A stretch of 64,000 nucleotides of DNA, taken from the NCBI GenBank assembly GCA_965199825.1, contig OZ241329.1, forward strand, positions 256,001-320,000, read 5' to 3'. Both the position numbers and the translations under genes were made by a program. The notes under the pieces were generated by a model. That model was not told the origin of the DNA. It searched no databases and saw only the letters and a list, made by a program, of their open reading frames with translations. Numbering within the stretch: position 1 is the first letter of the stretch; each line of letters begins with the position of its first letter. Positions 2,134 through 44,549 of this stretch are shown piece by piece. This DNA is from Bdellovibrionales bacterium. GTDB taxonomy: Bacteria; Bdellovibrionota; Bdellovibrionia; Bdellovibrionales; UBA1609.

Positions 2134-2961
2134 TTAGATAGGTGCAGGGTAAGAAGCCAGTATCCAGTCTTCCAATAAACCCGCACGCTCATACTGCAAA
2201 TATTTTTTGATTGTTTCTCGCATGCGCTGAGCTGGGCGATTCAAAAGGTGTAAGGTGCAATCATCAAGAAGAGCGTTATTTAAAATTTCAAGATTTAGGC
2301 TCATCCGAGTTTTAAAGATCCATTCCTGGGCGCTTAAGACCTCGACACCGTTTTTACCTAATCCCAGATACTGATCCTGATCCACCCGAATCAACCACTG
2401 CGATTTGTTTCTTAAAGGAGCTTGAATCAAAAATTGAAAAGCTTGAGGATGATTTATTTTAATCTGCGCAAAATCGATTTCAAAAAGTTCGGCCGCAAGA
2501 TGCGGCATAAGAAAAGCACCATCAAATAATTTTTGTTTAGGCTCATATATGCGGTTGTTGAGAATCATGGCCGCAACTTGAGCAAAAAAAGCTCCATCAA
2601 GAAGAACTTTTCCCTGCACCTTTTTGATATTTTTCAAATAAGACAATACGGGCCGACGAAAGTACAGCAACTGCACCCCACCAATTTTTTGAATTTCGGC
2701 ACTGCGATAGAAAAAAGCGTTGTGGTTATCTTCGCCATTCCACAATTCAAATTGAAATCCCAAGCTTTCAATCTTGCCTAAGGCGGTAGCTGGAAACATT
2801 TGCTCGGCCGATAAGTTAAAACCTAAGCACAGCAAAGCAAAGAGTGTCACCAGCTTCAAGTTTTTCAGATCGACCCCCTTCAACCGGGATCTCACCATTG
2901 TGTTTTGATTTTGCAAAGCTAAAAATGAATCAAACGCCGAATCGAACTCAACCTTTTGCAA
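2134..2961 (-). CDS. Hypothetical secreted protein (true start probably about 30 codons downstream)
   Basis: 275-aa ORF with an internal signal-like segment LKLVTLFALLCLGFNLSA. Directly downstream of the amine oxidase. Confidence 0.6.
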   Translation of the reverse strand: MQKVEFDSAFDSFLALQNQNTMVRSRLKGVDLKNLKLVTLFALLCLGFNLSAEQMFPATALGKIESLGFQFELWNGEDNHNAFFYRSAEIQKIGGVQLLYFRRPVLSYLKNIKKVQGKVLLDGAFFAQVAAMILNNRIYEPKQKLFDGAFLMPHLAAELFEIDFAQIKINHPQAFQFLIQAPLRNKSQWLIRVDQDQYLGLGKNGVEVLSAQEWIFKTRMSLNLEILNNALLDDCTLHLLNRPAQRMRETIKKYLQYERAGLLEDWILASYPAPI

Positions 2962-4351
2962 TCTCCCGCGCAGCTCTCAAACCCGACGCCGCAGCCGAAT
3001 TCATAAATCCTCCCGAATCAAGATCTGCGTGTTCACCCGCAAACAACAATCGACCATTCAATTCTGAAAGCGGCATCACATTTTGAAATCGTGTGACGTC
3101 CCCAATCCCATAGGCGAAGTAGGCCCCTTTACTCAGAGGTTGAGTTGCCCAATTCCAGGTGAGGGCATTGCCGTCAGGCTCAAGCCCAGAAAATATTTGT
3201 TTGTCGGCTCCCAAATACAGTGGCTGCTGCTCGGGTTTTAAAGCTAAGCCCGCCTTGCCGCCCACAAAATTTGTAAGCAAACCCGACTTCCCTTTTTGTG
3301 TCCTTCCGCTGTCGTAACAATTTTGGGATTGCAGATCACTGTAGACCATCCCATTTGATTTTTTGCCGCTCACCATCCACTCATGATTTTTGAAACCCAA
3401 AATCACTTTGCCTGAAGTGTTGTAGGTGCAATTTAATATACAATCTTTTTTGGTGGGTCTGAGATTGAGCTTTTTGATTCCCTCCACATATCTCAAGACC
3501 GAAAACGGCAACGTGCAAATCACCCGGTGAAAAGATTTTTGCTTTCCATTTTCAAACGAGAATTTGAGGTGAGTTGCGGTCTCTTCTATTTTGGAAACAT
3601 GATGATTCAAATAAATTGATTTTTTATTTAGAGCTTCACTGATTGCCTCAATTAATTTTGTTGAGCCGCCCCGAATACAATAGGCTTGGTCGCTCTCGCC
3701 ATAAATAGAAAATGGCTTTTCGGGATCGCTCCCAATACTTTGCAGCAGTGTCAGAGCTGACGCCTGATCGAGATCAATCCCCGCTTCGCTTGTCATTGCC
3801 ATAGCCAAAAATTGGATAAACCATTTTTCGGTCATTTCTGAAAATCCACTCAAGTATTTTTCTAACGGCAGACGATCAAACTTTTTTAAAATTGCCGGCT
3901 GATCCAAACTCAAAACATCTTTGCGAATTAATCCCGAAATCGATTTGTAAGCTTTTGCTGCATCTTGATCTGTGTAAGCCTGATGATTAAAAAAATAAAT
4001 ATTGGGCTCGAGCCCTTTTTGATGATCGGCGTATTTATCAAGTGGGATCTTAAAGTTCTCACACAGATGTCGAATTGCATGGTGATTGCTATCAACAAAT
4101 TCACCACCTAAGTCCACACACATTTTGTCGCTGTTGAAGTTGGGGACGGTCAAAATTCTTCCACCCAAGCGCGATGCCGCCTCATAGATCCCAACAGAAT
4201 AGCCTTTGCGGTGAAGCTCAAGTGCAGCGGTGAGACCCGCTATTCCTCCACCTAATATGGCGATGGGTTTTTGTGTAGCCGCTTCAAGATAGCGCAGCGA
4301 AATGGGAAGTAAGGCGGCCGATGTTAAAAATTGCCGACGGGTCAGTTTCAT
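2948..4351 (-). CDS. Tat-exported flavin monoamine oxidase family protein
   Basis: TRRQFL twin-arginine signal, GGGIAGL FAD motif, EAASRLGGR, C-terminal FAGEH...GFMNSA. Confidence 0.9.
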   Translation of the reverse strand: MKLTRRQFLTSAALLPISLRYLEAATQKPIAILGGGIAGLTAALELHRKGYSVGIYEAASRLGGRILTVPNFNSDKMCVDLGGEFVDSNHHAIRHLCENFKIPLDKYADHQKGLEPNIYFFNHQAYTDQDAAKAYKSISGLIRKDVLSLDQPAILKKFDRLPLEKYLSGFSEMTEKWFIQFLAMAMTSEAGIDLDQASALTLLQSIGSDPEKPFSIYGESDQAYCIRGGSTKLIEAISEALNKKSIYLNHHVSKIEETATHLKFSFENGKQKSFHRVICTLPFSVLRYVEGIKKLNLRPTKKDCILNCTYNTSGKVILGFKNHEWMVSGKKSNGMVYSDLQSQNCYDSGRTQKGKSGLLTNFVGGKAGLALKPEQQPLYLGADKQIFSGLEPDGNALTWNWATQPLSKGAYFAYGIGDVTRFQNVMPLSELNGRLLFAGEHADLDSGGFMNSAAASGLRAAREIAKG

Positions 4352-39980: not shown

Positions 39981-40420
39981 CTACCAACTCACCGACTCAT
40001 CCATTTGTTGCGGACTTGGACCTGGGCCCGATGGCTTTGATTTATTCTTTTGGAAAGTCTAAGTTGAATTTGAGATAATGGTTAGACCTTTACCACTTAC
40101 CTGGATTATTCCCTCAAAATATAGATGTGATAATTCTCTAGAACCTCTCTGAATTTCTCATGCACATCTTTAGGTATAATAAAATCTAAATACCCCAGTT
40201 CGTCTTTCATCGTTAGAAAGGCAGTAGATGGTCTTTGGAAAACTGGTTTTACACCAGCAAAAATAACGTTTTCACCTTTTCCTTTTTGTCGGATGTCCGT
40301 AGATCTCAACGGCGGAAGATTTTTATTTTCTTCCCGGATGCCAAGCATGATGTTTCCAATGAGAGAATAAGAAAGTGTTCGATAGTCTGAAACGCCCTCT
40401 TCGTTAATTTCGTAAAGATG
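39981..40420 (-). pseudogene. dnaE2: C-terminal remnant of error-prone DNA polymerase DnaE2 (OB-fold)
   Basis: SDYRTLSYSL...MLGIRE...VIFAGV..FQRPSTA-FLTMKDELG resembles DnaE2 ADY..GLSL / VAG...RQRP.TA..F.TLEDE.G. Continues after a frameshift as EGIIQVSG. No polymerase domain upstream. Confidence 0.7.
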
Positions 40421-40616: not shown

Positions 40617-40886
40617 TTAATGTTTAATACGAAAGTGCATTCGCAACATACTGACGACGTGATTTAATTCTTTTAGAGCCGGTTGATCCCAATCCATAGA
40701 ATCAATAATCATGCGGGACAATCTGTCTGAGCTTTGTTGCCGTTTTTCTTCTCGCATTTCAAGTAACTCGCTTTTGATCACGTTCAAGTCTCCAAAGAGC
40801 AGGCCGTCTTGCTTTCGTTTTTTGATGTCATTTTCAACTTGAGTAAGCGCTCGTTCAATCGCTACTTTGATTTCTGCGGGCAGCAC
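40617..40886 (-). CDS. Small helical protein, putative toxin immunity protein (paralog 3)
   Basis: Paralog of 41513-41785 (LP.EI..AI, ELLEM, LS..IIDS.DWDQP.L.EL). Confidence 0.7.
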   Translation of the reverse strand: MLPAEIKVAIERALTQVENDIKKRKQDGLLFGDLNVIKSELLEMREEKRQQSSDRLSRMIIDSMDWDQPALKELNHVVSMLRMHFRIKH

Positions 40887-40909
40887 TATTTAATCCTTAT
40901 TTTTGAAAG

Positions 40910-41222
40910 TTAATCCGCCTGAAGTTTTAAATTGAAGGTTTTTAAAGATTCTCGTTTCGACTGATAATGTTTCCTAAGAATCTTCGTCGCATTGCTAAAC
41001 TCCTTTAGTACAGGGTCATCCCAGTCCACTGAATCAATTGATCATATGGCTCAGCTGTGCAGAAACACCTTTTCTCGTTCCGCTTAACATCTCTAAAAGT
41101 TCTGCTCTCATGTATACCAGAGAGCCGTTGGGTATATTTTCGATCGTGGTGTTTCCAATAGCTTTATTAATTTGAGATAGCACAAAATTAATTGCCGCAA
41201 TTATTTCATCTGGTAGCGTCAC
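40910..41222 (-). pseudogene. Frameshifted immunity-like paralog 2
   Basis: After SHMI, one extra base near 41039. The shifted frame resumes IDSVDWDDPVLKEFSNATKILRKHY..., matching both intact paralogs. Confidence 0.8.
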
Positions 41223-41370
41223 TTCAACCTTTCAACAAATTTTAGGTGTTCAAAAAGCTTTCCCAATATTAGGTACTGTTTACCACTAACCGAATGACAA
41301 AAATTCGGAGTAGTTGTCCCCTCAATTGCTTCGCGTAAGATGATAATTTAATCTGAGCAAGTCCACTACA
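41219..41370 (-). pseudogene. Toxin C-terminal remnant (TNT/NADase-like tip)
   Basis: EAIEGTTTPNFCHSVSGKQYLILGKLFEHLKFVERLK*. The stop overlaps the paralog 2 start (GTGA). Confidence 0.55.
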
Positions 41371-41512
41371 CTTGCCTGAGCAGTTGCGGGTTATTAAAGT
41401 AAACCTCGTGACTGTAGCAATGAAAATAAACTTGCTTATGTCCCGCTTGATAATGCCAAAAAATAAATCAAATTTAGTCTGTGGATATTTCGATTTTTAT
41501 TTCGCATTTTCA

Positions 41513-41785
41513 TTAGGGTTTTAAATGAAAATGCGACCGTAACAATTCACGGACCTTATTTAGCTCTATCAAAGACGGCTGATCCCACTCTAGAGAATCG
41601 ATAATGATGTAACTCAATTGCGGGGAAACTTGTGTTCTTTTCTCATCACGCATCTCGACCAATTCAGCTCTGATTCTATTTAAAGCACCATAATTTTGAT
41701 TTTCGTTAACGTTTGCTTCGACATCTTTTTCAACCTCCAACAATGCTACTTCGATTGCGGTCTTGATTTTTTCGGGAAGCATCAC
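41513..41785 (-). CDS. Small helical protein, putative toxin immunity protein (paralog 1)
   Basis: 90 aa; GTGA overlap with the upstream toxin-like remnant; paralogous to the two genes downstream. Confidence 0.72.
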   Translation of the reverse strand: MMLPEKIKTAIEVALLEVEKDVEANVNENQNYGALNRIRAELVEMRDEKRTQVSPQLSYIIIDSLEWDQPSLIELNKVRELLRSHFHLKP

Positions 41786-42050
41786 TTCAACCTTTCAACA
41801 AAGTTAGATTCAGCGAGTTTGCCAAACATAAAAGATTTTTGCCCACCGCCATTATGCCCAAAGTTGGAATAGTCTCACCTTCAAACATTTCAGGACAAAT
41901 TTACCCAAAACCTGTGTTCGGTTTTAATCTGGTAATGCAAGTTTACTTCCGGGGGTAGAGTGGTCAGAATTGTTCCGGAAGTCCCAAAACGTCCGGTTTG
42001 CCAGTACGCCGGATTTTTAAATTTCAATTCATAAGAAGTTTTCGAGGGCA
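41782..42050 (-). pseudogene. Decayed TNT/NADase-like toxin domain
   Basis: Across frames: GRFGTS (41977-41994), KLALPD*N (about 41921-41944), MFEGETIP / NFGHNGGGQK...GKLAESNFVERLK*. Confidence 0.6.
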
Positions 42051-42461
42051 TAATCTGACTTTAAAAACTGTTCGAACGTTACACTAAAGGTGCCAGGAGT
42101 TTATGTCCGACGTCTGGAGAATGATCAGTGGAGCCTCGACGAAATAATTCAGGCGATGCTAAATTTCGTAATGGCTTGCTAGGCAAAGTTTTCTGCAATG
42201 GATTCATAAGAGTGAGAAAAAAACTCCCTTTGATTTTGCAATTTGAAATGCTTCACCAAAGCTCTTCATCGGAAGCGGCATTTGCGGCGAAACACATAGA
42301 TTATTCTCTCAAGTGACACTTGATAAGTGACGACGCCTGTTCGTCACAAAATATAATGGCAGCATTCTGCTTGCTGGATGTGGCACAGGCAATTAACAAA
42401 ATCGTAACCACGAAGGCGACGTGGAAATTATCAAAAACATAGCTTTGACTCAAGCGTTCCG

Positions 42462-43325
42462 TTACTGCTTCGGAGTAATCAAAAATTGGTGAGGGTTAAA
42501 CCGAACACTTTCGAAGATAATCTTGCGGCCGTAATCTTTGACTTCAAAATCTTTTGAAAGTTCATCTATAATAGCTTGGTCGTTTGGGGTGGTGGTTCGG
42601 CCTAATTCATCTTGAAATATCATTTCTGTGTACATCGAGCCGCCCGGAGCCAGTTTCAGTAAAAGAAATTTCCGAGTATCGAAACTGGCTGACACACCCG
42701 TTATCACAATACCACCCAGTTGTATTTCTGCAGTGGATGCTCCGAGTGCGGCCTGAAGGGATTTATCTTTAAATATCTTTTCAAAATTAAGTTGGTATAA
42801 ATAAAAATACTTTGTGAATGATCCTAAAGAATTGACCCACTGAACTCGCCAAACAAAAGGTTCAGGTAGCGGGCCTTCAATACTTTTAAAATTTCGAAGC
42901 GAATCAACGCGTTCGACCGTTGTCGTTGGCGACAAAGATTGAAGACGAGCTTCGATTTCTCCGATGACGTCATCTCGACCTGTGCCCCATTGACTTAGAA
43001 TGTCGATCAAAAAAAAGTTTTGTGCGATCGGATAAAGATACAAGGGTAGAAAGATATCAGGACCCGATCCTAGTGAGATCACCGACAGGCCGAAAGTTTT
43101 CGATGAATCAATTTGTGGTCTTGTACTAATAAAATTGGAAACATTGGCGTTAGGCCGTGCTGATCGTTGATCTATTTTATTTGCTTCAAGTAATTCCTGC
43201 CTTAAAGTTTTGAGTTGTTGTTCACATGCCAAGTTTGCACTTTCTGAATTAAAATAGTCCATGGATAAACAGATTCTACTGATTGAGAGAACTACCAAAA
43301 AAAGAATAGTTTTAGATTTTCGCAT
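42462..43325 (-). CDS. Hypothetical secreted protein, possible Rossmann/SAM-like motif
   Basis: Signal-like MRKSKTILFLVVLSI; VISLGSGPD. Confidence 0.6.
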   Translation of the reverse strand: MRKSKTILFLVVLSISRICLSMDYFNSESANLACEQQLKTLRQELLEANKIDQRSARPNANVSNFISTRPQIDSSKTFGLSVISLGSGPDIFLPLYLYPIAQNFFLIDILSQWGTGRDDVIGEIEARLQSLSPTTTVERVDSLRNFKSIEGPLPEPFVWRVQWVNSLGSFTKYFYLYQLNFEKIFKDKSLQAALGASTAEIQLGGIVITGVSASFDTRKFLLLKLAPGGSMYTEMIFQDELGRTTTPNDQAIIDELSKDFEVKDYGRKIIFESVRFNPHQFLITPKQ

Positions 43326-43853
43326 ATTTTTTGATACCAAATCAGAAGCGGCTGTCAATTAGTGACAACTTCGTGTCGTAAAAGTTGAGCGAGATCCAAG
43401 CTCAACTAACATTTATTTAAGCGAAGGGGTAGAATTCCGCTGGAAGTTTTCCTGCCTATCTTTGAATGCGGCTATTAAGATTCAAAATATTTTAGAAATC
43501 TGGCCGGCTAATAAAATCGATTTTACAGAGGCTCATTGGATGGATTTCGCTAGAGGATCTCCAAATCGCACGAATTTAATTGCCCACTGCTACTTTACAG
43601 TCTGATCCAGATTCCGCCATCTTGCACCCGGTGCGGATGGTTTAGATCTATTTTTTGAATGTCTTAATTAAATTTGATTTGATTATTAGAATAGATTTCT
43701 TCCAGCAAGCTCATATCTGAGAAAAAATTGTCCGAAGGATTAGTGTTCGATTGGTATAAAAATGAACTTTGTATTTGATAATTTGATTCAAAAAATGGCG
43801 TGAAGGCTAAAGAATCTCAAAAAAAAATTTACCGCCTGGGCTCTAGAAGTTTG

Positions 43854-43976: not shown

Positions 43977-44549
43977 ATGAAACAATATAAACTATTTAAG
44001 TTTAACACCTCAAAGTCGCATGGCGGAGCTGTCACTTCTGGAAAGCGAAAGACCGCCCGCCCTCTAAATAAAAAACGCCTTCACCATATCGTTATGAAAT
44101 CAAATTTAGCAAAAGGGCGTTACAGCTTTAAAAGCTTGAGGCATCGACAAAAGATTGAAACTTTAATTCATCGTAAAGCGCAGATTTATGGAATTCGGAT
44201 CGCCGAGTATTCGAATGTGGGAAATCATCTTCATCTTGTTGTCAGATTTCAATGTCCATATTTATTTAAAAACTTTCTTAAAGTCACAATGGGGTTGATT
44301 GCTCGCATTGTCACTCACGCCAAGAAGGGTAAACAGTTTGGACGATTTTGGGATGGACTGGTTTTTAGCCGAATCATTTCGCCTGGGAGAGATCAGGCTC
44401 GTATCTTTGAATACATTGCGGCCAACGTAATTGAATCCGAAATAGGAAATTTTTTTCGTCGTCAGTATGAATTAGAATGTGAGCGTAAATGGAAGAAAAG
44501 ACGACAGGCAGCGACGGATGACTCAAAATCTTTCCGTCCAATAGATTAA
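43977..44549 (+). mobile_element. HUH/Y1 transposase-like protein (IS200/RAYT superfamily)
   Basis: HHIVMKS, NVGNHLHLVV (HUH), FW...FSRII, and YIAAN catalytic-Tyr-like helix. Confidence 0.8.

Follow-up and report, generated by a model that had tools for sequence, protein, structure and literature searches.

Serratia Rhs1 effectors with NADase activity carry TNT-fold tips, exchange tip and immunity gene as a pair and have orphan immunity genes behind them, as described in the available part of PMC10539506. Thioester domains (TEDs) are defined by three motifs and, according to Walden et al., occur only in Gram-positive wall-anchored adhesins (both points from the available parts of PMC4450167 and PMC6194298).

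The window analysed here, a whole stretch of 64,000 nt from a Bdellovibrionales bacterium, contains three paralogous genes of about 90 codons in tandem on the minus strand, where an earlier note made from the letters alone had placed them; two are intact and one is frameshifted (Table 1). We consider it likely, with a probability of about 0.8, that the array consists of cytoplasmic immunity genes directed against predicted NAD(P)+-glycohydrolase tips, two of them lying behind broken remnants of such tips. Neither an intact carrier nor a TNT domain or Rhs core was found in this genome (2.84 Mb, 100% complete by markers), and no further paralogs of the 90-aa genes were found elsewhere in it.

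Table 1. The array and its surroundings, in window coordinates
Feature	Position	Strand	Details
Immunity-like copy 1	41513..41785	-	intact, 90 aa; predicted four-helix bundle, pLDDT 90
Immunity-like copy 2	40952..41222	-	frameshifted; ORF 41034-41222, tail in other frame 40955-41038
Immunity-like copy 3	40617..40886	-	intact, 89 aa; toxin remnant upstream not detectable
Junction copy A, toxin stop/immunity start	41782..41802	-	21 bp
Junction copy B	41219..41239	-	21 bp, identical to copy A
Remnant A, decayed C-terminal part of TNT/Tne2-fold tip	41782..42000	-	profile positions 48-125; 3 frame breaks and 1 stop
Remnant B, last 34 codons of second tip	41219..41323	-	single unbroken frame, profile positions 92-125
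Possible carrier lipoprotein-signal remnant	42358..42420	-	hydrophobic run then Cys, no in-frame start
dnaE2-like error-prone DNA polymerase fragment	40106..40348	-	NF004225 E 8.9e-6, far below cut-off, profile positions 942-1005 of 1047
IS200/REP-associated tyrosine transposase-like gene	43977-44549		PF01797, E 4e-6; about 2 kb upstream of array
298-aa gene upstream	42462-43358		no Pfam/NCBIfam match

Copy 1 shares 53% identity with copy 3 and 40% with copy 2, and at the DNA level the three copies are 45-58% identical, with synonymous sites saturated. In the tree, copies 1 and 3 were grouped (support 87/92) and copy 2 was placed elsewhere; a single clade was not rejected (p-AU = 0.224), so that duplication in place and collection from different donors would both fit. 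The open reading frame of copy 2 yields 62 aa and then ends in a premature stop. This frameshift is probably no assembly slip, because contigs from two runs of one study (one run being perhaps the assembly's own source) agree across the break. Counts of promoters and terminators at the array were at the same level as in shuffled sequence.

The motifs that the earlier note had quoted from the broken upstream frames (GRFGTS, KLALP and EGETIP/NFGHNGGG) are all present in those frames, and the proposed resemblance to TNT-type tips was supported with a profile of intact tips built without any sequence of this genome. In a frameshift-aware scan, remnant A scored 35.3 bits and remnant B 34.0 bits, compared with a maximum of 30.0 bits among 13,214 other tiles, a comparison that somewhat favours the remnants because the test windows were set on them and the null tiles were fixed. 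Standard searches gave weak matches for each remnant by itself: remnant B, which retains the conserved Gln position of the tips, was the top of 56,748 six-frame genome pieces in hmmsearch (E about 0.03-0.05), and a genome-wide tblastn of the remnant gave E = 0.058. The runner-up tiles of the genome tip scan fall in unrelated intact genes. A remnant ahead of copy 3 is unsupported, as 7,378 of 25,718 tiles reach its score, and a value of 25.1 obtained there earlier reflected overlap with remnant B. As proposed, two immunity genes are intact (copies 1 and 3), and the broken tips of copies 1 and 2 fit a decay of the toxins. Further upstream, the lipobox-like stretch may be the start of the lost carrier; the signal is suggestive only, with its score equalled by 2 of 3,300 tiles when carrier positions 1-60 are used and by 61 of 3,300 when positions 1-330 are used. 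The window yielded no trace of the Cys-motif region of the carrier.

Both copies of the 21-bp stretch encode FVERLK followed by a stop that overlaps the next start as GTGA, exactly as the earlier note had read it. The repeat is perfect, cannot be extended and occurs twice genome-wide, both times here; in simulation, a perfect run of 21 nt had a probability of 0.003 at 60% identity. The junction of an intact homologous pair at L011 already matches it at 17 of 21 bases, and the site is therefore under constraint. Recombination at the site and selection on translational coupling would each account for the identical junctions.

Searches of Pfam, NCBIfam and PDB sequences with the 90-aa proteins returned nothing significant, a single-sequence homolog search returned only the self-match, and no homologs were found in 60 relatives; the family was found in 3 of 401 genomes of the phylum. 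Together with the openly available main texts searched, which gave no account of this carrier or of the immunity family, these results are in line with the suggestion of an undescribed family. An Arg, an Asp and a Trp are invariant in the family, copies 1 and 3 retain its conserved residues, and neither has an evident signal peptide; the proteins are likely cytoplasmic and likely act against the predicted NAD(P)+-glycohydrolase tips. Of the suggested Tsi6-like helical bundle, a four-helix bundle is predicted. The Tsi6 profile PF18660 matched none of 12 family members at E ≤ 1 and nothing at the locus, and the structural Z-score ties with de novo bundles. Across the 401 genomes of the phylum PF18660 had no match, in a search whose controls were likewise silent. 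The missing profile match in the 12 members and the tied Z-score argue against the genes being remote true members of the Tsi6 family that protect a predator from T6SS NADases of prey (Tse6/Tne2 type), as do two further points: the intact toxins found upstream are all lipoprotein carriers rather than PAAR/Rhs effectors, and immunity is usually cognate-specific. We regard that explanation as improbable.

In relatives, the carrier consists of a lipobox, a head, PT-TG and a variable tip, and is followed by the immunity gene. We collected 62 carriers, of which 60 tips fell into 7 clusters at E 1e-5 (2 truncated proteins were left out). The intact homologous tips have the TNT palm fold. PF14021 was detected in 19 of 62 carriers at E ≤ 0.05, scoring above its cut-off at L013 (30.8 vs. 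27 bits) and below it at L007 (18.9 bits) and L011 (24.8 bits). Gln555 is present in 19/19 members of the tip cluster and in 52/62 carriers overall, and corresponds to Rhs1 Gln1452 when the ends of the aligned range are counted back without gaps. Given the Tne2/Tse6/Rhs1/TNT fold and this conserved Gln, we infer that the intact tips hydrolyse NAD(P)+, and the carriers in relatives are predicted to be membrane-anchored weapons. A non-NADase tip class with the pattern RVMPG...PY...HIP was also seen (L018, L019, L021, L028 and L036; P0066 and P0082), presumably an Ntox30-like RNase; there was no Pfam tip match for L018 or L021.

Outside this genome we identified five distinct true loci of the 90-aa family (L007, L008, L010, L011 and L045), among them the intact gene pairs that the earlier note had recommended looking for: at L007 and L011, the homolog lies directly 3' of an intact 573-aa gene, and at L008 it is the in-frame continuation of a broken tip. 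The contig edge cuts off L010 and L045, which stand outside the neighbour count; in 3 of the 3 readable loci the same tip type lies upstream of the homolog. Indirectly, 5 of 17 database homologs agree with a carrier in the length of their longest contig, all with carriers of the same tip subclade. L009 and L012 were dropped as short chance matches inside large unrelated open reading frames, P0016 and P0017 (long, multi-stretch matches) were left out, and no relation of the 92-aa gene behind the L013 tip to the family was detectable.

Several of these loci have surroundings of their own. The L008 sequence occurs in a same-phylum genome (G119), with a record labelled Oligoflexia, Bdellovibrionota. 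At its positions 2785-3204 (the same as L034 and L043) a deletion has joined the broken tip to the homolog, so that here, too, a toxin has decayed and its immunity part has been kept; the fusion adjoins two genes that look AbiE-like by eye. L007 comes from a Streptomyces griseus MAG record, and the 44% GC of its contig suggests mis-binning; its toxin pair adjoins DarT, macro-domain and AbiGi genes. The intact pair at L011 (3212-10990) lies beside a T4SS coupling-like ATPase and IS21-like and ParA-like genes (the latter two by eye), a neighbourhood that suggests a mobile element.

Across L007, L011 and L013-L018 the downstream gene follows within -10 to +1 nt in each case, and the 90-aa family occurs only behind the L007/L011 tip type. 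This change of downstream gene with tip type makes it very improbable that the small genes are chaperones or accessory factors of the lipoprotein and that the tip is no toxin, an idea in whose favour some carriers end in DUF6973 and precede genes unlike immunity genes (metallophosphoesterase-like). Against it, too, the small genes outlast the carrier here, and P0015 fuses the 90-aa domain to a homolog of the gene behind a different tip at L015 (45% over 162 aa), as expected for two immunity domains. The carriers' thioester-like lipoprotein head combined with DUF6973 in place of PT-TG and tip was seen in 4 of 4 tested cases (L022, L024, L029 and L033), similar C-termini occur at L023, L025-L027, L030 and L031, and behind some DUF6973 carriers lie genes that by eye resemble metallophosphoesterases, or genes for small proteins that look secreted.

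The carrier head contains all three TED motifs, in order and at similar spacing. Cys116 is kept in 60/60 non-gapped rows, on strand 106-116, in a [YFL]C-hydrophobic-hydrophilic motif; Gln160 and Trp164 are kept in 61/61 non-gapped rows, on helix 156-167, with the Thr position of the central motif (TQxx-hydrophobic-W) hydrophobic in carrier heads; and Gln305, of the C-terminal bond-forming Gln motif, is kept in 62/62, with the fifth motif position mostly Gly and not hydrophobic. NF012162 matched weakly over the Cys motif in 5 of 62 carriers (best E 0.016); its sole genome-wide match in G313, a same-order genome (Bdellovibrionaceae) that encodes carrier P0063, is the carrier, and in four other carrier genomes matches were elsewhere or none. 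PF08341 did not match the carrier heads. In an Atlas structure search with P0063 residues 95-320, TED clusters appeared in rows 4, 5 and 7 (TM 0.36-0.39, under the bar), and neither PDB search that used the 573-aa model, a query type that is weak for single domains, had a known TED among its first 50 matches. On balance, we moderately favour a real thioester domain; covalent attachment as part of toxin delivery would be a less probable further step. Ahead of the TED clusters, the same Atlas search placed three unnamed Bacteroidota clusters (108-518 members, TM 0.71-0.74), and the shared head fold possibly marks a wider Gram-negative thioester-like family.

Around the array, the dnaE2-like fragment downstream is consistent with a decayed mobile island. 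Homologs of the 298-aa gene were found in 2 of 200 genomes of the order, in differing contexts, and no immunity or tip cassette lies within 1.5 kb of them. The main rival to our reading shares its origin: a cassette from a mobile island would be a dying relic in which copies 1 and 3 have simply escaped damage so far and confer no present protection. The dnaE2 fragment and the IS200-like transposase fit such a relic, as do the frameshift in copy 2 and the restriction of the family to so few genomes of the phylum. The distribution of damage is less easily reconciled with it, as the roughly 215 nt of remnant A contain 4 lesions and the carrier has largely disappeared, whereas the immunity genes show 1 lesion over about 810 nt, and the conserved residues are intact in copies 1 and 3. 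We judge the relic unlikely, while counting several points in its direction against our own reading: with copy 2 already broken, copies 1 and 3 may be decaying too, and low pN/pS reflects the long past rather than present selection. Copy 3 also has no remnant, each remnant is weak by itself, and identity between copy 1 and the immunity genes in the intact pairs reaches only 46-48%.

Under the preferred reading of retained immunity genes, the array would go back to a polymorphic-toxin locus of the lipoprotein type in Bdellovibrionota, which picked up tip-plus-immunity cassettes, probably by recombination at the conserved stop/start junction. Like other NADase immunity proteins, the four-helix proteins would bind to the tip and obstruct its cleft. 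In Tsi6, Lys62 is a basic residue inserted in the toxin cleft. Carrier and tips would then have decayed, with copies 1 and 3 likely kept and protecting against incoming tips of the same subclade from rival Bdellovibrionota; a predatory lifestyle of the host is assumed from its group. More tentatively, and with somewhat less than even confidence, the array could be the defensive leftover of undescribed Bdellovibrionota weapons: lipid-anchored polymorphic toxins with a thioester head as covalent harpoon, swappable mostly-NADase tips, and a new four-helix immunity family hoarded by rivals as orphan arrays. Antagonism of predator against predator in Bdellovibrionota is little described in the literature searched, and the intact natural pairs at L007 and L011 make every step directly testable.

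Compared with TIE-adhesin TEDs, as far as the available parts of PMC4450167 and PMC6194298 describe them, the head has three elements in common with them, a Cys motif located on a strand, a central helix bearing Q-x-x-hydrophobic-W and a C-terminal motif with Gln, but it lies in a diderm lipoprotein fused to toxin tips, and its profile and structure scores are below cut-offs. No literature match combined 'thioester domain' with 'polymorphic toxin', or placed a thioester domain in Gram-negative Bacteroidota lipoproteins; if real, a Gram-negative lipoprotein that joins a TED to polymorphic toxin tips would connect toxin delivery with covalent adhesion. In the available part of PMC12419801, Lipobox-Cystatin-like polymorphic toxins likewise join a lipobox, a conserved N-terminal domain, a variable toxin and immunity; unlike the carrier, they have another N-terminal domain and lipid-targeting tips, and PT-TG or TNT does not appear in that main text. 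Myxobacterial SitA (available parts of PMC5562445 and PMC8546572) is similarly lipobox-anchored and found in predatory bacteria, and it too has a variable C-terminal tip and an immunity gene downstream; PT-TG, NADase and Bdellovibrio go unmentioned in the main text of PMC8546572, and the likeness would rest on the carrier being a lipoprotein polymorphic toxin. Unlike Tse6-Tsi6 and Tne2-Tni2 (PDB 4ZV0 and 6B12), the 90-aa family lacks a PF18660 match and has its own invariant Arg, Asp and Trp. The Serratia Rhs1 cassettes, in the part of PMC10539506 available, share TNT-fold NADase-type tips, swappable pairs and orphan immunity genes; here, however, the carrier is a lipoprotein with PT-TG and not Rhs/T6SS, this genome has no intact carrier, and the immunity fold, unlike that of RhsI1, is predicted to be helical. 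Orphan immunity arrays and TNT-fold NADases are already known; the novelty lies in an unnamed immunity family linked to a single tip subclade and in the carrier to which it leads. In its working the array would resemble the orphan cassettes of Rhs NADases, and the carrier is like SitA in being a lipoprotein, but we file the system under neither.
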